Shown: positions 3,989 through 20,500 of the stretch, piece after piece | Layout of the letters: each line of letters opens with the position of its first letter | Position numbering within the stretch: the first letter of the stretch is position 1 | Notes under the pieces: generated by a model | Seen by the model: only the letters and a program-made list of their open reading frames with translations | Databases searched by the model: none | Told to the model about the DNA's origin: nothing | Program-made: the position numbers and the translations under genes | Source: Promethearchaeota archaeon | GTDB taxonomy: Archaea > Asgardarchaeota > Lokiarchaeia > Sigyniarchaeales > SOKP01 | Length of the DNA: 24,006 nt | Assembly (NCBI GenBank): GCA_016839585.1 | Contig: JAEOTZ010000066.1 | Location: forward strand, 1 to 24,006 | Reading direction: 5' to 3'

Positions 3989-4093
3989 ATTGTATCACTA
4001 TATAAAACAATATAGAAAAAATTGTAATTTTTGATTTTCCTTACTCAATAATAAAAATATAAAATAATACTATAAATAAGATTTGATATTAAA

Positions 4094-5713
4094 TTAAACT
4101 AACTTAAATTCTTCTAGAATTTGTTTTTGGAGCGCTGGCCTATCTATTTTGGCTAGACGAGTAATAGGAAGTTCTTTCTTAATAATAACTTTTTTAGGAA
4201 CTTTGAAATCTGCTAGTTCTTTTTCGCACATTTCAATTATTTCACTTTCATTGATTTCTTGTCCGGATTCTGGGACAACAGCAAGCCATACTACCTCATT
4301 ATAAATTTTATCAGGTACTCCAACAGCTGCCACCATAGCTACTTTAGGGTGTTCAATAACTACACTTTCTACTTCAGAGGGCAATACAGTATAACTACCT
4401 ACTCGAATAATAAACTTCTTTCTTCCTTTAATGTATATTCTGCCATCCTTAGTGATATAACCTAAATCTCCAGATCTGCACCAACCATCTATAGTGAAAG
4501 TTGATTTGTTTTCCTCGGGCATTTTATAATATCCGGGTATAGTTAAAGAACCTCGAAACAACATTTCGCCAGTTTCTCCTGAGTTCAATTCATTATCATT
4601 CTCATCTACTATTTTCATCTCCTGATCAGGTAATAATTTACCAATATAACCCTTTGCTAATTCATCTAATGGATCACCTATATTAGTAAATGTAACTTCT
4701 GGTCCTGATTCTGTACTTCCATAAGCATTGAGAATAATAGGACAAATTTTATCTCTCATACCAGTCAAAAGTTCCATGCTCAATTTTTCTCCACTAACAA
4801 CAGCTAAAACTAATGATGATAAATCAAAATTATCTAAATCTGGTAAACTTAACATTATTGCATACATTGTTGGAACGCCACCAATCAATTGTAATTTTAA
4901 TTTTCGTATTGCTCTTAACACAGCATATGGATTCCATTGTTCTTGTAAAATTATTTCACACCCTGCAGCAATTATGGTGCCCATGATTTCAACAGAGCCG
5001 CCTACATGACTAGGTGGAAAATGATTAATCATTTTAAATCTTGGTTTTAATCCTAAAGGTTCACCTTTATCCTTAATATACTTTGCTTCTAAATAGCTTG
5101 CTCGTGCAATGTTTCTATGAGTTAGCAGTGCTGCCTTTGGTACACCTGTAGTTCCACCGGTAAAGATAATTAGAGCACCGTCATCAGGGTTCAATTCTAA
5201 CCGAACCTCCTCTAATTCATTACTTAAATTATAGTTTTTTGTTAATAATTCTTCAAATGGAATTCCATATTCATCTCTTCCTATTATATAGTATTTGATT
5301 TTATGGTTAAACTGCGAACTTAATTCTTTAATGATATTGGCAATATTATATCCACGTGCTTTTCCTATTAAAAATACTAGTTTAGGGTCTGCATGGTTGA
5401 TAAAACGTCTATAATCTGCTGATCTAAAGCGGACATCCATTGGGACACAAATTGCACCTATAGAATTAGCTGCAAAGTATATTAAAACATATTCTATAAT
5501 CATTGGTAATATTGTTACAATTGTGTCACCTTTTTTTACCCCAAGATCGAGAAAAGCTTCAGCTAAATGATCAACTGTATCAGAGAATTCTTTCGCATTA
5601 TATTTTTTCCATTTGAATTTTATAATAGGAAATTCAGGATCCATCGAAGCCCAATGTTTTACATATTGCCATAGATAATCAAACTTAGGAATATCAGATT
5701 TTTTATTCATCAT
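4094..5713 (-). CDS. Class I adenylate-forming enzyme (acyl-CoA synthetase / fatty-acid-CoA ligase)
   Basis: FTGGTTGVPK P-loop, YGSTE, SGDLG, GRKK hinge, C-terminal catalytic Lys (LPITRLAKIDR). Confidence 0.93.
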   Translation of the reverse strand: MMNKKSDIPKFDYLWQYVKHWASMDPEFPIIKFKWKKYNAKEFSDTVDHLAEAFLDLGVKKGDTIVTILPMIIEYVLIYFAANSIGAICVPMDVRFRSADYRRFINHADPKLVFLIGKARGYNIANIIKELSSQFNHKIKYYIIGRDEYGIPFEELLTKNYNLSNELEEVRLELNPDDGALIIFTGGTTGVPKAALLTHRNIARASYLEAKYIKDKGEPLGLKPRFKMINHFPPSHVGGSVEIMGTIIAAGCEIILQEQWNPYAVLRAIRKLKLQLIGGVPTMYAIMLSLPDLDNFDLSSLVLAVVSGEKLSMELLTGMRDKICPIILNAYGSTESGPEVTFTNIGDPLDELAKGYIGKLLPDQEMKIVDENDNELNSGETGEMLFRGSLTIPGYYKMPEENKSTFTIDGWCRSGDLGYITKDGRIYIKGRKKFIIRVGSYTVLPSEVESVVIEHPKVAMVAAVGVPDKIYNEVVWLAVVPESGQEINESEIIEMCEKELADFKVPKKVIIKKELPITRLAKIDRPALQKQILEEFKLV

Positions 5714-5765
5714 TATTTATGGGTTTTTACTGAAAATTAAATTTTGCATAAAAATGAAAAATAAT

Positions 5766-5779
5766 TTCTTATATAAGAA
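5766..5779. promoter_or_regulatory. Perfect 14-bp palindrome TTCTTATATAAGAA containing a symmetric TATA-like core, between divergent acyl-CoA ligase and enoyl-CoA hydratase genes
   Basis: Self-complementary sequence in the 102-bp divergent spacer; GGAGGT SD at 5806-5811 for the + gene. Confidence 0.45.
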
Positions 5780-5815
5780 CTTTTTATTCATAATAAATCT
5801 GATATGGAGGTTTGA

Positions 5816-6589
5816 ATGTTGGAAGAGATCATCTTATATGAAAAACAAGGAGATATTGGAAAAATAACACTAAACAAACCAGAACAGCGAAATACTTTAG
5901 ATTTAGTAACTCTTAAAGAATTGATTAATGCTTTTAAAAAAAGTACTGAGAATAATGATGTTTGTGTTATTTATGCAGCTAATGGGAAACATTTCACTGT
6001 TGGTGCTGACCTGAAATATGGATATGATCTACTTACAAGTAGAGAAAGATTAGCTGAAGCTATAGAGTTTTTGGAATCCTTTCAAAATTTAACAAGAGCT
6101 ATGATAGCCCATCCAGGAGTGATTATTGCAGGTCTTCATGGTTGGGTTATTGGTGGAGGATTTGAGCAGGTATTATATTGTGATTTAAGAATCGCAGCAA
6201 ATGATACAAGGATAATGCTCCCAGAACTAGGAGTAGGACTATTCTTTTCTAATGCATCTACTAAACTATTGCCAAGAATTATTGGTGAAGGTCGAGCAAA
6301 ACAATTAATGTATTTAGGCACAGAAATTAATGCTGAAGAAGCTCTTAATATCGGATTAGTAAATCAAGTTTGTAAGCCTGAAGGACTAAAAAGAATTCTT
6401 AAACGTACAGCAAATTCAATAGTACAAAAAGATCATTTAACTCTCAAGTGGGCAAAAAAATTGATAAATGAAAACCAAGACGACACTTTTGAATCAGTAC
6501 TAGCCAAGGAATTACGAGTAATGATTTTAACAGGTCAATCTGAAGAACTGAAACAAAGACTTGAAAAGTTTGTGAAAGAAAAGCATTAA
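5816..6589 (+). CDS. Enoyl-CoA hydratase/isomerase (crotonase family)
   Basis: ITLNKPEQRN, FTVGADL oxyanion loop, both catalytic glutamates (GGGFE; LPELGVG), AEEAL.IGLVN.V; strong SD. Confidence 0.93.
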   Translation: MLEEIILYEKQGDIGKITLNKPEQRNTLDLVTLKELINAFKKSTENNDVCVIYAANGKHFTVGADLKYGYDLLTSRERLAEAIEFLESFQNLTRAMIAHPGVIIAGLHGWVIGGGFEQVLYCDLRIAANDTRIMLPELGVGLFFSNASTKLLPRIIGEGRAKQLMYLGTEINAEEALNIGLVNQVCKPEGLKRILKRTANSIVQKDHLTLKWAKKLINENQDDTFESVLAKELRVMILTGQSEELKQRLEKFVKEKH

Positions 6590-14533: not shown

Positions 14534-15937
14534 ATGCCTTTAACAGATTTAAAATCTAAATATTCACGAAAAGAATTAAAATTTGGTCCAAAAAGCGAAG
14601 GAGCTAAATTTGTATCAAAATATTATGATGGTCATCATAAAGAACCCCATGAAGATCTTCTATATGGCTTTTTATGCTTGATATATGATGGCACTACTAA
14701 TATTGATAATTTAAAATCTGAAATGAAGGTTTTTTTTATATCGGCAACAAAACAAGTCATTATTGAAGATAATGATGTAGACGAATATATTCAAAAGGCC
14801 AAACAAAAACAATTAATTGAAATAACTCAGAATCAAACCATTAGACTTACAAAAACTGGTATTAAATTGGTAGAAACAAGTTATCACTGGAACTTACATA
14901 CAACATATTGGATGAGAAAATTGTTCTCTGTGACGTCAGTAATGCTTGCTTCTGCATTTTTTTTAATCATTCTCTCAATTCTAAAAATCTTAACTGGTTT
15001 GCAATTAGGTTCCCAGGGTATGTTGACTGAAGGTTATGAAAATTTAACCGATTTAATAAAAATTGCAATCATTGGATTGGTTGGATTAAAATTTAAAAAA
15101 GATAGGCTTGCGAGTATCCTTATAATCATTATGATGATGTTTACAGGAGCAATATTGGTTTGGACTGGTATTGAGAGTTTGTTTACACAGGAGATTATCA
15201 TCCCAAATGTCCAAGCCTATATGATTGGATTTATATCAATTGCCATGAATGCCGGTTTAATGTATCTTAAAGGGATGGTGGGGAGAACCTCAGGGAATTT
15301 GGCTCTTTTAAGTGATTCTAAAGATTCTGAATTTAACATTAAGCTTTCTCTAGGAGTTCTAATCGGATTAACTTTTGCCATATTTAAAATATATTTTATC
15401 GATGCTCTAGTTGGAATACTAATTGCAGTTTTTGTGTTTAAAGAGGGAATTGAAATTATCTGGGAAATTTCAAAGAAAGAAGAAGATTTTGATATTACAT
15501 CTATAAAAGTTTACGCTGATAATATATATGAAAATCGATTAACTGGATATATTCTAGGTAGTATTAGACGAGAAAACCTCTCTCGAAAAAAACTTATTGA
15601 AAATTTTTCTAAAGGTCTAAGTTTAGGACGTATGTATTATGAAGGATTTGCTGATTTCTTTTATGATGAATTAGGTCCTGAAACTGCTGATAAACATTTG
15701 AATAAATTAATAGAGGGAGGATATATTGAGGTTTTGGATGAACAGCTCATCTTAACAAGAAAAGGATTATACGCTTTTTATCATGCTAAAATAAAAGAAT
15801 TCAAGCAAAGAGCAAATAATATCAATTTAAAAAGTCAAATAGTATTCAAAAGTTTATCCTGTATTATTTTTATAGTTTTTCTAGCACTATTGATAATTTT
15901 TGCACCTCAAATTAATGCTTGGTTAAATAGTCTTTAA
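14534..15937 (+). CDS. Cation-diffusion-facilitator (CDF)-like membrane domain flanked by N- and C-terminal winged-helix-like domains
   Basis: TM core LSILKILTG...GSQGMLTEGYENLTD...SGNLALLSDSKDS...IDALVGILIA resembles CDF TM1-6. Both flanks end in a wHTH wing motif (LIE-x5-6-LT-K/R-x-G). One extra C-terminal TM helix. Confidence 0.7.
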   Translation: MPLTDLKSKYSRKELKFGPKSEGAKFVSKYYDGHHKEPHEDLLYGFLCLIYDGTTNIDNLKSEMKVFFISATKQVIIEDNDVDEYIQKAKQKQLIEITQNQTIRLTKTGIKLVETSYHWNLHTTYWMRKLFSVTSVMLASAFFLIILSILKILTGLQLGSQGMLTEGYENLTDLIKIAIIGLVGLKFKKDRLASILIIIMMMFTGAILVWTGIESLFTQEIIIPNVQAYMIGFISIAMNAGLMYLKGMVGRTSGNLALLSDSKDSEFNIKLSLGVLIGLTFAIFKIYFIDALVGILIAVFVFKEGIEIIWEISKKEEDFDITSIKVYADNIYENRLTGYILGSIRRENLSRKKLIENFSKGLSLGRMYYEGFADFFYDELGPETADKHLNKLIEGGYIEVLDEQLILTRKGLYAFYHAKIKEFKQRANNINLKSQIVFKSLSCIIFIVFLALLIIFAPQINAWLNSL

Positions 15938-15987: not shown

Positions 15988-17238
15988 TTATTTTTTATTA
16001 AAATAGTCAGACTCTAGGTTTGGGAATATTTTTTTCTTCCTTCCTTCTTTTTTAAAGTTTATCAAGCCTAATTCTTCAAGTTTCCTTATATGATATTGTA
16101 TTGTTTTATGATCAACCTTGAGTTTTTTAGTAATTAAATTATTCCATATTCCTGGATCTTGCTCAATCATTTCTAGTATTTCTAAAGTGAATTTACTTTT
16201 TTGTAACTTTAAATCAATATTAGAAATAGGATTTTTTTGATAATAAGGAAAATAAGCAATAAAGTTACCTACTCTTTTTTTTCCAATTATTTTGTAAGTC
16301 TGAAGAATATCAAGGTGCCACACCAAGTTTCCAGCAGCAAGGCTTGTCTTTCGTAATAATTCATTAAAATGAACTCCAGGCTCGTTTAAAATTAGTTCAA
16401 TAATTTTACTTCGATTTTCGTTTTCTAGAACATCATCTAAGGATAATCTATGAGCCCCTTTCTCAATTGAGATAGTTCTGGTTCTTAAATATTGAAAATA
16501 ATCTCTTTTTGAAATTAAATATGCTATTGATAAAATACTAACAACAGTTATTAATATTGTTGTTATCAACCATGTCCAATCATAAGATTCTACAGTAAAC
16601 TCAAAAAGTGTGACAAAATAATCAATACCTCCTCCAAGACCTAAAAGAGTACCTTCTAAGTATGGTTCCAAAGTTGATTCATTGATCTTCTCTTCTGTGT
16701 CAATTAATTCCCACGAGTCTTGATTTGTTTCATATATCGCCAAAGAGTAATTGATACTAGGTCTTAATCCATATAAACTATTTTTTCGATACATAATAGT
16801 TAAATTTTCAATTGAAGTATTGACCCTTATTCTAAAAATACAATTATATTTGTATCTCAGCTGAAAATTTCCTTTTTTTGGATTTGGGGGGAGATTTGAG
16901 ATACCATAGCTTTTCATGCTTGTTTTTGACGTTATATTTAAAGACATAGACTCATTGTTGCTAAACATAAAATAAGATTGACGATTTTTTATATTGTTAT
17001 CATATTCCATATAGAGATCTATTAGAGAATCTGTTGAAATTTCAAATATAATATTATTTGGAAAATAATAAGAAACATGTTCTCCAGGGTTAACTGTATC
17101 TTCTGTCCAAAAATCGGGAATATCTTCATCTCTAGCTAATACATAATAAAAAAAAAAATTAAACTCAAGAATAAGAATAAATACGAATAAAATTTTTAAC
17201 CGATGCTTTTTCTTAGTAATTCTTCTATTAAAAATCAA
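15988..17238 (-). CDS. Membrane-spanning transcriptional regulator: signal peptide/anchor, beta-rich ectodomain, TM helix, tandem winged helix-turn-helix (COG3398-like)
   Basis: TTG start; basic n-region plus hydrophobic stretch ending VLA; six N-x-S/T sequons; TM WLITTILITVVSILSIAYLI-SKR; LENENRSKIIELILNEPGVHFNELLRKT.L..G.L.WHL..L and ILEMIEQDPGI....ITKKL.VDHKTIQYHIRKLEELGLI. Confidence 0.85.
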   Translation of the reverse strand: MIFNRRITKKKHRLKILFVFILILEFNFFFYYVLARDEDIPDFWTEDTVNPGEHVSYYFPNNIIFEISTDSLIDLYMEYDNNIKNRQSYFMFSNNESMSLNITSKTSMKSYGISNLPPNPKKGNFQLRYKYNCIFRIRVNTSIENLTIMYRKNSLYGLRPSINYSLAIYETNQDSWELIDTEEKINESTLEPYLEGTLLGLGGGIDYFVTLFEFTVESYDWTWLITTILITVVSILSIAYLISKRDYFQYLRTRTISIEKGAHRLSLDDVLENENRSKIIELILNEPGVHFNELLRKTSLAAGNLVWHLDILQTYKIIGKKRVGNFIAYFPYYQKNPISNIDLKLQKSKFTLEILEMIEQDPGIWNNLITKKLKVDHKTIQYHIRKLEELGLINFKKEGRKKKIFPNLESDYFNKK

Positions 17239-17279
17239 ATAAGTTCAATTTTTGGTAATATTTTCTTAATTTAATTAAT

Positions 17280-17310
17280 AAAAATAAAAAAAATTTTTAG
17301 TTTTAAAAAA
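17280..17310 (-). terminator. Oligo-T tracts on the minus strand between the surface-protein gene and the regulator gene
   Basis: A6 at 17305-17310 and an A-rich run at 17280-17293, just downstream of the TAA at 17319. Confidence 0.4.
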
Positions 17311-17318
17311 TTGGTTGC

Positions 17319-17990
17319 TTATTGTTGTATTCTTTTTCTAAGAAAAGCAACTGAAACTACAGCAATTACTCCTATTATAGCAGCAATACCAACATAAATT
17401 ACAACATTTTCTACACCTATTGGAATTAAAATAGTCCACGAAGAAAAGTGATCCACTTCCGCAGTTAAATAGTCATCTTCAATTGTAGTAGGAACAGGAA
17501 CCCATTTGTCACCTTCATAATGTGCCCAAACACCATTTCTATTATGGATTGATGCTTTAATGCGTAATCTTGCTTGGATTTCTGAACAATTACATCCTAT
17601 TGAAATACAGAATCCTTCTCGATAAGTATATCTATTACGGGTTCTTGTATGAACCCTATAACCTTTTAATAATCCAAGCTCAGCTTGCTCTTCTGTACAA
17701 GTCATATTCATTAGACAATCACCAGATGTACTAAGCTCTAATATAAAATCCTTTGCTCCAATCTTCAAAGCTTCACATTCTATGTTTATACAAACACATT
17801 GATCGCAATCTATACGTATCTGTGTTTGATTACGAAATCGTATTGCATTTTCACCTGGATCTAGAGTACCACTATATTCATCTGTTGGAATATCTAAAGG
17901 CGATGCTGCTGCTACATTACTTATGCTAACTATGGAAATTAGTGCTATAAAAACAAAAGCTCCCAGTAAAATTTTATTAAATTTTTTCAT
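17319..17990 (-). CDS. Type I membrane/surface protein, Cys-rich, with a juxtamembrane HFS (GAIN/ZU5-like autoproteolysis) motif
   Basis: Signal peptide MKKFNKILLGAFVFIALISIVSISNVAA; 9 Cys; sequons NQT/NMT/NCS; W.....T......YLTAEVDHFSSWTILI; C-terminal TM plus RKR; AGGTG SD at 18001-18005. Confidence 0.85.
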   Translation of the reverse strand: MKKFNKILLGAFVFIALISIVSISNVAAASPLDIPTDEYSGTLDPGENAIRFRNQTQIRIDCDQCVCINIECEALKIGAKDFILELSTSGDCLMNMTCTEEQAELGLLKGYRVHTRTRNRYTYREGFCISIGCNCSEIQARLRIKASIHNRNGVWAHYEGDKWVPVPTTIEDDYLTAEVDHFSSWTILIPIGVENVVIYVGIAAIIGVIAVVSVAFLRKRIQQ

Positions 17991-18036
17991 TTTTTTTAAA
18001 CACCTAATTTAGTCTAATTTAAGAGAATTAAATTAT

Positions 18037-18068
18037 TATAAAAAGGATTGAGGAATAACTTTTCCCAA
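18037..18068 (-). promoter_or_regulatory. Putative promoter of the surface-protein gene: TATA (TTTTTATA, 18037-18044) with an imperfect palindrome TTGAGGAA-N5-6-TTCCCAA (18048-18068) immediately upstream
   Basis: TATA position predicts a leader of about 20 nt that would contain the SD; the palindrome abuts the BRE position. Confidence 0.35.
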
Positions 18069-18176: not shown

Positions 18177-18212
18177 ATATTAATATAGAATTCATATTAA
18201 TATAGAATTCAT
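18177..18212. repeat. Perfect tandem 17-bp direct repeat ATATTAATATAGAATTC x2 (+AT)
   Basis: Copies at 18177-18193 and 18194-18210, about 35 nt upstream of the ATG at 18245. Confidence 0.85.
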
Positions 18213-18244: not shown

Positions 18245-20500
18245 ATGTCGTTAAAAGAATTCACTAAAGAAGTATTTACGAGGTATGGATTCGCTGAAGA
18301 ACAAATTAATATATATATAGTTTATTTAAGAGTGCCTCGTGCAACACCTTCTGAAGTATACATGACTCTAACCGAGGAACATAAAGAATTAACCTATGAG
18401 AAAGTATTAGAAATTACAAATTGGTTAGTTGAGAAGGGTTTTCTTAAAAGAGTTGAAGGTATTGTAGATAGATACATCCCTCTTGAACCCTACTTCGAAT
18501 TATTTACAACTGAATCAGAACTCTTTAGAAATGAAATTGCTAAAATAAAAGATAATATCTTAGCAGATCAATCTAACCGTTTTGAAAAACTTGAAGCTAT
18601 ACAAAACAAAAGTATAGGAGAAGTAGAAACTGCTGTTGATGGTCAAATTAAAGCATTTTTCGAAGATTCTGACTCAAAAAATAATATTAAGAAAAATAAA
18701 ATTGATAATGCAAGAACTCGCTTTACAGAAACTACTAAAGAATTAGAGACTAATATTCACACTATAATGGATACATTAAACACTGATTTAAAGAATATTT
18801 CAACTACAGCTGTAGGTGACAATGAGTCAACTGTCAATAAAACAAAAGATAATTTGACAACTTTAATTGCAGATTTGTTAAATGATTTTTCAACTCGTGT
18901 GGAGAATTTAGATAAAGAATTGAAAAGGGAGTTAGATGAGCACGTAGAAAGACATAAAACTACTGCAAATGAACTAAAACCAAAAATGGAACAGATTTTA
19001 GAAAAATATCTAGAGAGAATGGATAAGGTAGTTACTGATTTAAAAGAAAAAATTTCTGGTCTATTAAAAGAGCATATGAATCATGTGAAAAACACTACAG
19101 ATACACTTCAAACCAACTTAAAAGCAACTGTTGATGAGAGACATAGAATATTAACTGATCAAACTAATGATTTTAAAAGTATGACTCTTACTTTAATTGA
19201 TAATCTTCTTGAACATGCTAATCGTTTTACTGATTTTTCAGAAGATATGGCTAAAAAAGGATTTTTCTGGCTTGGAAAAAAGAAAAAATATAAAGCTAGG
19301 CATGAGACTACCATACAAAATATATTAACTTACACTGAACCTATGAAAGATGATTTTGTTAAAACGAGTGAGGATTATATTACTACGACCAGAGAAACAA
19401 CCGATCAAATAAAAACAGATGTAACTGATATAATGACTAAGGAAAATGATGGACTAGGCTCTGAAACCACTGATCTTGATTATAAAGCTCAAGAGACAAT
19501 TGATGCGCAATTAGAGAACTTAGCGACAGATATGGCGTCTGAAATTGATAGTACATTGCAAAGTGGAGTAAAAGACTGTTCTGATACCAATTTAAAGTTA
19601 AAGGATTCCACAGAAAGTACTTTAAAGCAACATCATAGACAATATGATGAAGCAATTAATAGGCATAAAGACGGCTCTTTAAGACATTACACTGATTTTG
19701 ACACTGAAATTAAAAGAATTAATGAAAACTGGACTAGAGATACAGATAGTAAATTTTCTGGAGGGAAAAGAGATTGCTCTGACAAAATTAATAATGAGAT
19801 TCAATTATGGAATGGAGAAACTAGTGAATTAGATAAAAGTTTAACTGATATGCTGGCTGATCACAAATCTAAATATGAAGAAAACGCGAAAACATTACAA
19901 AATAGTTTATCAAATACAACTCGAGACACCACACAGAATATTAAAGATGCCATTGCTGATTTTACACTCCAATTCATGAATTCCATCGATGATGGCACAG
20001 AATTAGCTGAAAATAATGAAGATAAATTGAAGGATATCCATCATGCATCTAGTTCAATTCCAGAAAGATCTAAAGTTACAACTTGGCATGTAGTTGGACG
20101 GGATGCAATGATTGCTGCAATAAAAGATGCAGTATATAGAACTAAATCATCGATAATCATTGTGACTCCAGTAGTAATTCCCGAAATTTTACAAGTTGTT
20201 TCTGAATTTGCATTCCAGAAAAAGGCAGCGCGATTCATGCTTACCTCCCAATGGGATTTGAAACAGTATGCCGGCATTATTGCGAAGATGAAGCAACTTG
20301 GAAATATTCAGTTTCGACAATTGTCTACCGCCGGAGAGTTCTTCGCTGTCACTAGAGATGCTGAGGAAACTATAATTGGTCCTTACACTGCCAGAGAGGG
20401 TGATATGATTAGTATTGTGAGCAATCAGGAGCAATACTCTAAGCTTTACGCACAATTTATCGGACCAATATTCCAGGCGAATTCTAGGCCGATAAAGTAG
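18245..20500 (+). CDS. TrmB-like protein: N-terminal winged HTH, ~530-aa helical/coiled-coil insert, C-terminal TrmB effector/PLD-like domain
   Basis: YGFAEEQINIYIVYL....ATPSEV...L....V......LVEKGFL....G...RY.PLEP (TrmB wHTH pattern); long helical region with 22-aa periodicity; TWHVVGRDAM...IKD...RTKSSIIIVTP...FAVTRDAEETIIG (TrmB C-terminal pattern, no HxK); GGAG SD. Confidence 0.8.
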   Translation: MSLKEFTKEVFTRYGFAEEQINIYIVYLRVPRATPSEVYMTLTEEHKELTYEKVLEITNWLVEKGFLKRVEGIVDRYIPLEPYFELFTTESELFRNEIAKIKDNILADQSNRFEKLEAIQNKSIGEVETAVDGQIKAFFEDSDSKNNIKKNKIDNARTRFTETTKELETNIHTIMDTLNTDLKNISTTAVGDNESTVNKTKDNLTTLIADLLNDFSTRVENLDKELKRELDEHVERHKTTANELKPKMEQILEKYLERMDKVVTDLKEKISGLLKEHMNHVKNTTDTLQTNLKATVDERHRILTDQTNDFKSMTLTLIDNLLEHANRFTDFSEDMAKKGFFWLGKKKKYKARHETTIQNILTYTEPMKDDFVKTSEDYITTTRETTDQIKTDVTDIMTKENDGLGSETTDLDYKAQETIDAQLENLATDMASEIDSTLQSGVKDCSDTNLKLKDSTESTLKQHHRQYDEAINRHKDGSLRHYTDFDTEIKRINENWTRDTDSKFSGGKRDCSDKINNEIQLWNGETSELDKSLTDMLADHKSKYEENAKTLQNSLSNTTRDTTQNIKDAIADFTLQFMNSIDDGTELAENNEDKLKDIHHASSSIPERSKVTTWHVVGRDAMIAAIKDAVYRTKSSIIIVTPVVIPEILQVVSEFAFQKKAARFMLTSQWDLKQYAGIIAKMKQLGNIQFRQLSTAGEFFAVTRDAEETIIGPYTAREGDMISIVSNQEQYSKLYAQFIGPIFQANSRPIK

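Follow-up and report, generated by a model that had tools for sequence, protein, structure and literature searches.

GAIN domains have long been held to be a eukaryotic invention for force sensing at the cell surface. GAIN_B-like sandwiches that carry an HFS motif, termed Microbial Autoproteolysis INducing (MAIN) domains, have been described in bacteria and archaea (Brogan and Rudner, bioRxiv 10.64898/2026.05.12.724683). Cleavage occurs between the F and the S, as seen by Edman sequencing, is abolished when the serine is replaced by alanine and leaves the fragments associated; the MAIN domains of B. subtilis YfkN and others are cut at this position of HFS. The MAIN proteins described are large, with a mean of 158 kDa, and include adhesin or enzyme domains; according to their authors, signalling has not been tied to the stub that remains, and neither Asgard archaea nor transcription-factor fusions are mentioned in the preprint (bioRxiv 10.64898/2026.05.12.724683). 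The present work concerns two genes, here called A and B, that lie in a 24,006-nucleotide stretch of DNA (the window; positions 1 to 24,006 of contig JAEOTZ010000066.1, assembly GCA_016839585.1, Promethearchaeota archaeon). They are co-oriented on the minus strand and together span positions 15988-17990. A reading of the letters alone, referred to below as the sequence-only reading, had singled them out as a surface protein and a membrane-spanning regulator with related ectodomains. We find that the two ectodomains are paralogous, that the one in A is a candidate MAIN domain with an HFS motif while the one in B lacks this motif, and that the pair is retained across a whole order together with a dedicated box at the promoter of A.

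Protein A resembles the MAIN domains in its GAIN_B-like sandwich, in the HFS motif in the last β-turn, in its signal peptide and in the location of the domain directly before a surface anchor. It differs from them in having no passenger and in being anchored by a transmembrane helix instead of a sortase or SLH signal, and the locus differs in pairing this HFS-bearing copy with a cleavage-dead one that forms part of a transcription factor. The GAIN domains of adhesion G-protein-coupled receptors (GPCRs) and polycystins provide the best structural matches and have H-x-S/T at the same turn; as in adhesion GPCRs, the site is followed by a conserved hydrophobic strand that runs directly into the membrane. 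However, A has neither a helical GAIN_A subdomain nor the GPS cysteine pattern, and it has one transmembrane helix rather than seven, with any output having to run through a separate protein. The ZU5-UPA/FIIND proteins (NLRP1, CARD8, PIDD and UNC5) share the sandwich class, and the end of the chain at their F-S site aligns with F182 of A (6x6c_E, 7crv_C and 7jkq_B). They are, however, cytosolic animal death-fold signalling proteins, and A has no UPA or CARD.

A self-cleaving juxtamembrane ectodomain coupled to gene regulation across the membrane, as proposed here for A and B, is found in the SEAL-domain anti-sigma system RsgI/SigI and in Notch-type receptors. There the fold is SEA-like, the cleaved domain and the regulator form one chain and signalling is by intramembrane proteolysis, whereas in B the regulator's own copy of the domain has no site. 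In ToxR/ToxS, CadC and TcpP/TcpH, a membrane-tethered DNA-binding domain is combined with an outer sensor and a co-encoded single-pass partner, an arrangement to which A and B bear a likeness. B may act in a similar way but is not a member of that family, as its order is reversed, with the winged helix-turn-helix (wHTH) domains at the C-terminus, and these are of the ArsR/MarR type and not of the OmpR type. Unlike in ToxR/ToxS, the partner A is a paralogue of the sensor domain of B. B further resembles the HVO_0163-type tandem-wHTH membrane proteins (PF24266; COG3398-like) in that its first wHTH domain scores above the PF24266 cut-off, but only the B branch has the MAIN-like ectodomain. In the literature on HVO_0163 we found no function, the sole mention being in a proteomics list.

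Fold and candidate cleavage site of the A ectodomain

The homologues of A (n = 224) are all about 225 residues long. A itself has a layout of signal peptide, ectodomain of about 160 residues, transmembrane helix and short basic tail (RKRIQQ). Only about eight residues separate the signal peptide from the first strand, which leaves no adhesin or enzyme passenger domain. In the AlphaFold model (predicted local distance difference test, pLDDT, of 86 overall and above 90 for residues 31-190) strands run from residue 38 to 190 and are followed by a helix at 193-222. This anchor helix comes directly after the strand SWTILIP that follows HFS, and begins ten residues past S183.

When the model was compared with known structures using VIA-align, the four best matches were all GAIN domains: CD97 (Z = 7.1, root-mean-square deviation 4.3, 134 aligned), CD97 again (6.7), BAI3 (6.4) and CELSR1 (6.3). 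ZU5 and FIIND structures come at Z = 5.8-4.3 (CARD8 ZU5-UPA 5.8, ankyrin ZU5 5.4, NLRP1 4.8), and GPR56, Gpr126, GPR97 and GPR110 at Z = 4.6-4.0. A Foldseek search of the PDB, from which the VIA ranking is independent, returned ankyrin ZU5, adhesion-GPCR GAIN and NLRP1 FIIND, with weak E-values but a single theme. Because Z-scores below 8 may reflect merely a common arrangement, and the tool rates the range of A as 'middling', the fold match by itself is moderate evidence that A belongs to the MAIN/GAIN_B/ZU5 fold class.

Specificity is lent to this match by the HFS motif. In an alignment of 49 members of the A family, F182, S183, W185 and T186 are invariant and H181 is conserved in at least 90%; in a few members, such as P0142 and P0157, the histidine is replaced by E. 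According to DSSP, the motif sits in the turn of the model between strands 174-179 and 184-190, which are the last two. In the VIA superpositions, cleaved reference structures (N-terminal chains of NLRP1 ending at F1212, GPR56 at L382, GPR110 at 566, GPR97 at 249 and Gpr126 at 827) all end-align at residue 182 of A, while the alignment with the uncleaved CD97 chain continues to residue 192. The F182-S183 bond is therefore the positional equivalent of the GPS/FIIND scissile bond. From the motif, its position and the behaviour of the bacterial MAIN domains, we predict that A probably cuts itself at this bond.

No Pfam or NCBIfam family is assigned to A. The only recurrent weak Pfam match is DUF5803 (PF19119), found for 23 of the 49 members with a best E-value of 0.0026; it does not match the A protein of this genome, and nothing about its function was found in the literature on DUF5803. 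In the Haloferax and Methanosarcina control genomes, DUF5803 co-occurs with PF24266. A search of PDB chains with the A profile gave only enterovirus VP2 (YxYxxGFCxxxxCNxS, A residues ~120-145) at an E-value of about 0.03; this match is short and was read as chance. The C-terminus of A (residues 188-223, window positions 17319-17429) looks tripartite, with a conserved (I/L)P, the transmembrane helix and the basic tail, and 12 of the 49 members have weak Pfam matches to LPXTG anchors. Processing by an archaeosortase-type enzyme was considered and rejected, as this 99%-complete genome has no exosortase homologue.

A paralogous ectodomain without the motif in B

A direct BLASTP comparison of A and B gives an E-value of 1e-4. 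As that alignment took in the signal peptides, both families were trimmed to their ectodomains. The trimmed profiles align with hhalign over 135 collinear columns (P = 8e-5, probability 61%), and two N-glycosylation sequons fall at aligned positions (N95 of A with N100 of B, and N134 of A with N140 of B). A hidden Markov model (HMM) of the B ectodomain scores up to 31.8 bits on the 49 A ectodomains (median 20.9), and the A-ectodomain HMM scores up to 41.1 bits on those of B (median 23.5), against a maximum of 7.8 bits for reversed and shuffled decoys. When the ESM Atlas was searched by shape with the model of A, a B-family cluster (423 residues, with PF13412 and PF24266) came up at a TM-score of 0.69 (189 residues) and another B cluster at 0.50. 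The A and B ectodomains are thus paralogous, far beyond chance, and the alignment made by eye in the sequence-only reading is reproduced by hhalign in every paired segment and in both sequons, with the cross-searches and the Atlas match in agreement. A prediction of the complex between A(30-192) and B(36-219), using both alignments, scored 0.00; it gave no verdict and was weighed neither for nor against binding.

The homologues of B (n = 522) are 60-95% identical, and TTG starts recur across the family. Its last ectodomain hairpin, equivalent to the one that bears HFS in A, reads ...GLGGGIDYFVTLFEF, with a family consensus of DTDYYITLFE and a longer loop; the general pattern is D-Y-F/Y-I/V-T-L-F-E after a Gly-rich or DT loop. 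In an alignment of 50 B sequences, this hairpin contains no H-x-S/T, nor a histidine in any of them. Given a fold in common with A and a missing catalytic motif, we regard the B ectodomain as a pseudo-MAIN domain and not as a catalytic member. Foldseek and VIA searches with the whole of B returned only wHTH matches, so the assignment of the ectodomain fold rests on its homology to A and on the Atlas match.

Membrane topology and winged helices of B

B starts with a basic segment (RRITKKKHRLK) and a hydrophobic helix that may be a transmembrane helix or a signal anchor. An ectodomain of about 185 residues and a second transmembrane helix follow, then a basic linker of 25 residues and two winged helices. 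The AlphaFold model (pLDDT 79, mostly 85-94 in the ectodomain) has the same order: helix 2-33, strands 35-216, helix 222-252 and two wHTH domains. Around the second helix, W221, W223 and K244 are conserved in the B-family alignment. Basic residues flank both helices on the inside, and N-glycosylation sequons are conserved in the middle part only, which places the wHTH pair in the cytoplasm and the β-domain outside. The topology proposed in the sequence-only reading thus agrees with the positive-inside rule and with the models.

The tandem wHTH pair that had been recognised by eye is likewise confirmed by scores above the Pfam gathering cut-offs. The first domain matches PF24266 at 63.9 bits (cut-off 31) and the second PF13412 at 44.6 bits (cut-off 21.9), and both families are matched by 50 of 50 B relatives. 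Using VIA, the first domain is closest to Rv0081 (Z = 12.1) and CzrA (Z = 11.4) and the second to MarR (Z = 11.5). The first also has an NCBIfam ArsR/SmtB match, below the cut-off of that family. The cytoplasmic part of B is near-invariant across the order.

The genome encodes further B paralogues. One of 262 residues (G000:C67:13609-14181, L005; E = 7e-44) has a transmembrane helix and tandem wHTH domains without the large ectodomain, and weaker ones are found on contigs C48, C29 and C89.

Conservation of the gene pair

The A profile retrieved 80 loci from species-representative genomes. In 74 of these, B lies directly downstream of A on the same strand; five of the remaining six are cut by a contig end before or within B, and the last (L087) is a paralogue. 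Of the 134 genomes in the family to which the window's own genome belongs, 113 have A and 112 have the B ectodomain. Both are missing from 15 of the 134, six of which are 93-99% complete, and several of the genomes with a single gene have A or B at a contig edge. A and B are thus kept or lost together within the family.

The pair is also adjacent in sister families of the same order, in G135, G143 and G279, the arrangement in G143 being A, A', B. Two high-GC metagenome contigs (L106, 61% GC, 4066-6446, and L107, 64% GC, 107-2103), whose neighbouring genes are otherwise different, carry an A-like followed by a B-like gene; the A protein of G279 (56% GC, family f4 of the same order) is similar to those on these two contigs. 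With the sister families and the high-GC contigs added to the 74 loci, the adjacency is conserved as the sequence-only reading had envisaged. Its suggestion of a probable Asgard host also stands, the relatives being from Asgard/Promethearchaeota metagenome-assembled genomes.

Variants of the arrangement occur. In G143:C1:2677675-2679278 (L114), two tandem A genes precede B and each has a copy of the promoter box described below. In G138:C1:3656533-3657705 (L115), a single gene of 407 residues has two MAIN repeats, each with HFS, and keeps its own copy of the box. In many relatives of the same genus, an extra open reading frame (ORF) of about 300 residues is found (for example G201:C62:15228-15665), similar to the N-terminal half of A over its first 140 residues (E ~1e-50) and different in its C-terminal half; it is absent from the genome studied here.

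Promoter box upstream of A

Alignment of 79 regions upstream of A reveals a common block, TGGGrAnnnnTrTTCCTyAA, directly followed by CCTTTTTATA, with CTTTTTATA near-invariant at the TATA position. The columns of the box are 80-99% conserved, and the block continues into a conserved start region, with AGGTG ahead of the ATG. Conservation of the box exceeds that of the A proteins, whose identity is only 45-50%. Its imperfect palindrome is of the kind that a dimeric wHTH protein would be expected to bind. The proximal half-site overlaps the expected transcription factor B recognition element (BRE), and from such a position B could act as an activator or as a repressor.

The box is unique in its own genome. 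Searches with strict and relaxed patterns gave one exact match and two with one mismatch, both of the latter inside coding sequence without a TATA box, and the reversed-pattern control also gave two. In a position-weight-matrix scan, the box upstream of A scores 30.7 bits and the next site 20.3, while the null reaches at most 25.2. The A-type genes of G279 (GGGGAACGAGTGTTCCTCACTCCTTATAT), L106 (TGGGAGAGGTGTACCCCAATCCCTTTTATA) and L107 (..ATGCCTCAATCTTTTATA) have related boxes upstream, as do both A copies in G143 and the A-type gene of G138, where B is not adjacent. The only transcription factor adjoining A in G135, G143, G279 and the high-GC contigs is B.

The stop codon of A is followed by a run of T7-8 with 90-99% conservation across 72 A-B spacers, and the high-GC loci have this run too. 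Judging from this run, the AT-rich stretch that follows it and the TTG start of B, the two genes look like separate transcripts, A as a strongly regulated structural gene and B as a regulator expressed at low level. The sequence-only reading had suggested that the regulator may control the surface-protein gene. A unique, near-invariant operator-like box at the promoter of A and the near-invariant cytoplasmic part of B speak for this suggestion, and this support is circumstantial.

Wider family and one-chain relatives

A search of 1.84 billion representative proteins with the A-ectodomain profile (E ≤ 1e-3) retrieved 143 proteins. Nearly all of them have HF[ST] just before a C-terminal transmembrane helix, and some contain two or three tandem copies of the domain. 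In other Asgard families, only the last 60 residues or so match the profile (...W..VPS.V...N.V..NTTHFSxWT); these proteins are 360-560 residues long, with two or three repeats and a transmembrane anchor. Three bacterial matches (P0343, P0353 and P0384) belong to very large SLH-anchored proteins that contain Big, cadherin-like and Glug domains and have a weak Pfam ZU5 match, and in which the profile covers the 40-50 residues proximal to HFS (E = 1e-6 to 1e-3). As this is the architecture described in the MAIN preprint, A appears to be a stripped-down, passenger-free member of the MAIN class.

In two rare relatives, the HFS-bearing domain is found on the regulator itself. P0302 (481 residues, L106, 61% GC) combines NTSHFSTFTLL, a transmembrane helix and the wHTH pair in one chain, and an HFS-bearing A-like gene is located directly upstream of it. 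A word-index search with its ectodomain returned only the query itself. In P0255 (L105:51-1205), an A-type HFS ectodomain and transmembrane helix are fused in frame to the wHTH pair of B, on a single 2.5-kb metagenome contig that continues with the usual nitroreductase. Since it is seen on one contig only, P0255 may be a natural one-gene version, a deletion or an assembly chimera.

Features of the locus and neighbouring genes

The coordinates of all features of the pair and of its promoter are collected in Table 1.

Table 1. Features of the A-B locus in window coordinates, with the basis for each assignment.
Feature	Position	Strand	Basis or remark
Gene A, 223-aa type-I membrane protein	17319..17990	-	ORF
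Gene A signal peptide (predicted Sec), residues 1 to ~29	17904..17990	-	MKKFNK, hydrophobic core, VAAAS; block conserved in A alignment
Gene A ectodomain, residues 30-192, all-β sandwich	17415..17903	-	VIA-align and Foldseek matches
Gene A H181-F182-S183, candidate cis-autoproteolysis site between F and S	17442..17450	-	Conservation and turn position
Gene A transmembrane anchor, residues ~193-217	17340..17414	-	Model helix 193-222; hydrophobic block and basic tail conserved
Gene B, 416-aa membrane-spanning protein, TTG start	15988..17238	-	ORF
Gene B ectodomain, residues 36-219, putative pseudo-MAIN β-sandwich	16582..17133	-	Homology to A ectodomain
Gene B second transmembrane helix, residues ~221-243, then KRDYFQYLRTRT	16510..16578	-	Model helix 222-252
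Gene B wHTH 1, residues 273-331, PF24266 HTH_HVO_0163_N, ArsR/SmtB-like	16246..16422	-	E = 1.4e-17
Gene B wHTH 2, residues 349-405, PF13412 HTH_24, MarR-like	16024..16194	-	E = 1.1e-11
Operator-like box TGGGAAAAGTTATTCCTCAA, imperfect palindrome GGGAA..TTCC	18048..18067	-	Abuts BRE/TATA of A promoter
A promoter TATA region CTTTTTATAA	~18036..18045	-	~50 nt upstream of ATG (17990)
Oligo-T run after A stop, archaeal terminator-like	17286..17293	-	Followed by AT-rich, TATA-like stretch for B

Divergent from A lies a gene for a protein of 751 residues (18245-20500, plus strand), in which an N-terminal wHTH with weak likeness to TrmB precedes a long coiled-coil middle part. In 55 of the 80 loci this gene lies divergently from A at a distance of no more than 4 kb, and it is absent from the high-GC loci that retain pair and box. 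At 35-65 nt upstream of its ATG at 18245, TGAATTCTATATTAATA occurs twice as a perfect 17-bp tandem direct repeat (minus-strand reading; window 18178-18211), which may be the promoter or operator of that gene. On the other side of the pair, the ORF at 14534-15937 (plus strand) encodes a protein with a cation-diffusion-facilitator core (PF01545, residues 138-311) that is extended at both termini by long additional regions. This ORF sits between B and the nitroreductase in just 21 of the 80 loci.

Discussion

The fold and motif of A, the motif-less copy in B and the shared inheritance with the promoter box suggest a two-gene surface-sensing module in which A is a MAIN-type protein and B a cleavage-dead sensor-regulator that controls A by feedback. 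We give this reading a probability of about 0.5. In such a module A is exported and anchored by its C-terminal helix, as sequence and model both show. It would be cut at F182-S183, and the sandwich of about 150 residues would stay non-covalently on a stub made up of one strand and the transmembrane helix, as in adhesion GPCRs and the bacterial MAIN proteins. B would act as a membrane-spanning one-component transcription factor, with a sensor that is a duplicated domain that lost the cleavage motif. Its wHTH pair may bind the GGGAA..TTCC box abutting BRE/TATA and would thereby control A; that B binds this box is rather likely. B would then read the state of A, either intact or with the outer fragment shed or pulled off, and adjust the transcription of A. 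Contact between the paralogous sandwiches could serve for this, or capture of the exposed SSWTILIP stub of A. That the output of B depends on the state of A has a chance a little short of even. The outcome would be feedback on a surface protein that is prone to shedding, or a sensor of force or contact. As the cell has no nucleus, B would not need to be released from the membrane; M50 site-2 proteases are encoded elsewhere in the genome, and nothing ties them to the A-B locus. A more far-reaching version, an archaeal mechanosensing or surface-integrity circuit in which force or contact removes the outer fragment of self-cleaved A, the dead copy in B reads the exposed stub or the missing fragment and B switches the A promoter directly from the membrane, we consider doubtful.

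Several points weigh against the module. The structural Z-scores of A are at most 7.1, in the 'middling' range and thus moderate, the HFS motif could be purely structural, and Pfam GPS (PF01825), GAIN and ZU5 (PF00791) are absent among the 25 most-matched of the 46 families that the 49 members hit at E ≤ 10. As A has no passenger domain, the MAIN logic of releasing a cargo is not directly applicable. B is tied to the box only by co-conservation, and the TrmB-like neighbour of 751 residues or another factor could bind there instead. The double-MAIN A gene and the B-like gene of G138, which belongs to a sister family, are far apart. Finally, the local gene order is broadly syntenic, with the nitroreductase downstream in 60 of the 80 loci. 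The adjacency thus reflects in part a gene order that was inherited, and within the family it is weaker evidence than the co-loss and the distant loci.

The box and the co-inheritance would also fit if B sensed a different signal from outside (for instance a ligand, envelope stress or a glycan) and regulated A merely as a target, the paralogy being a trace of duplication. This would also be in line with the box kept by the A-type gene of G138, although B is elsewhere in that genome, and with the additional B paralogues at other loci in some genomes. It leaves unexplained, however, why the target should in every case be paralogous to the sensor domain and why the two are adjacent in 74 of 80 loci and on distant high-GC contigs, and we consider it fairly unlikely. 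The topology and the pairing resemble those of tethered regulators with a single-pass partner, and A could instead act in the manner of ToxS, as a single-chain chaperone or co-receptor that stabilises or gates B, with HFS being structural and no proteolysis taking place. The fact that B does well without HFS, and that P0142 and P0157 have E in place of H, fits this view. We nevertheless regard it as quite improbable, as F-S is invariant and H at least 90% conserved exactly at the GAIN/FIIND scissile position, nearly all of the 143 profile matches have HF[ST] before a C-terminal transmembrane helix and the bacterial HFS MAIN domains do cleave.

A further explanation is that B is no transcription factor at all, its winged helices being a scaffold, as in ScpB, ESCRT-II or RPC34, that tethers something to the membrane, while another factor binds the box. 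Foldseek matches of the whole of B to ScpB, RPC62/34, TFIIIC, ESCRT-II and SelB agree with this, and the TrmB-like gene is a frequent divergent neighbour that could supply such a factor. Yet each winged helix taken alone best matches DNA-binding repressors of the ArsR/SmtB and MarR types (Z = 10-12), and the Pfam and NCBIfam matches of B are to transcription-factor families. Moreover, the high-GC loci keep pair and box without the TrmB-like gene. We consider the chance of a scaffold role small.

The MAIN/GAIN_B-like kind of domain and membrane-tethered regulators are both known already. New with respect to the preprint and the literature searched are a minimal, passenger-less MAIN protein, a cleavage-dead copy of its domain on a tandem-wHTH regulator and the order-wide pairing of the two with a dedicated promoter box. 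The sequence-only reading had likened the pair to an adhesion receptor and recognised no described system of this architecture. The likeness is better founded than its author knew, since the fold and HFS motif of A match GAIN_B/ZU5 and MAIN. Its interpretation is supported in part; homotypic or heterotypic contacts of the ectodomains, in cis or between cells, and a part as ligand or co-receptor are putative. The claim of novelty has to be given up for the kind of domain, already described in the 2026 preprint, but stands for its pairing with a transcription factor carrying a pseudo-domain, which is not described there.

A may be the smallest possible MAIN protein, encoded beside a transcription factor with a putative cleavage-dead sensor and a single promoter box that could be used as a read-out, and this module is retained across a whole order of Loki-type Asgard archaea. 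Even if the proposed wiring is not real, A would still be a useful minimal model of the MAIN fold. If the mechanosensing version is true, a GAIN-like domain of prokaryotes would for the first time have a role in signalling, and this in the archaeal group nearest to eukaryotes; P0302 and P0255 would represent a one-chain, Notch-like version. If the wiring is real, prokaryotic GAIN-type signalling would be directly testable with the A ectodomain, the cytoplasmic domain of B and a 20-bp DNA site, and the module would bear on the origin of adhesion-receptor logic before eukaryotes.

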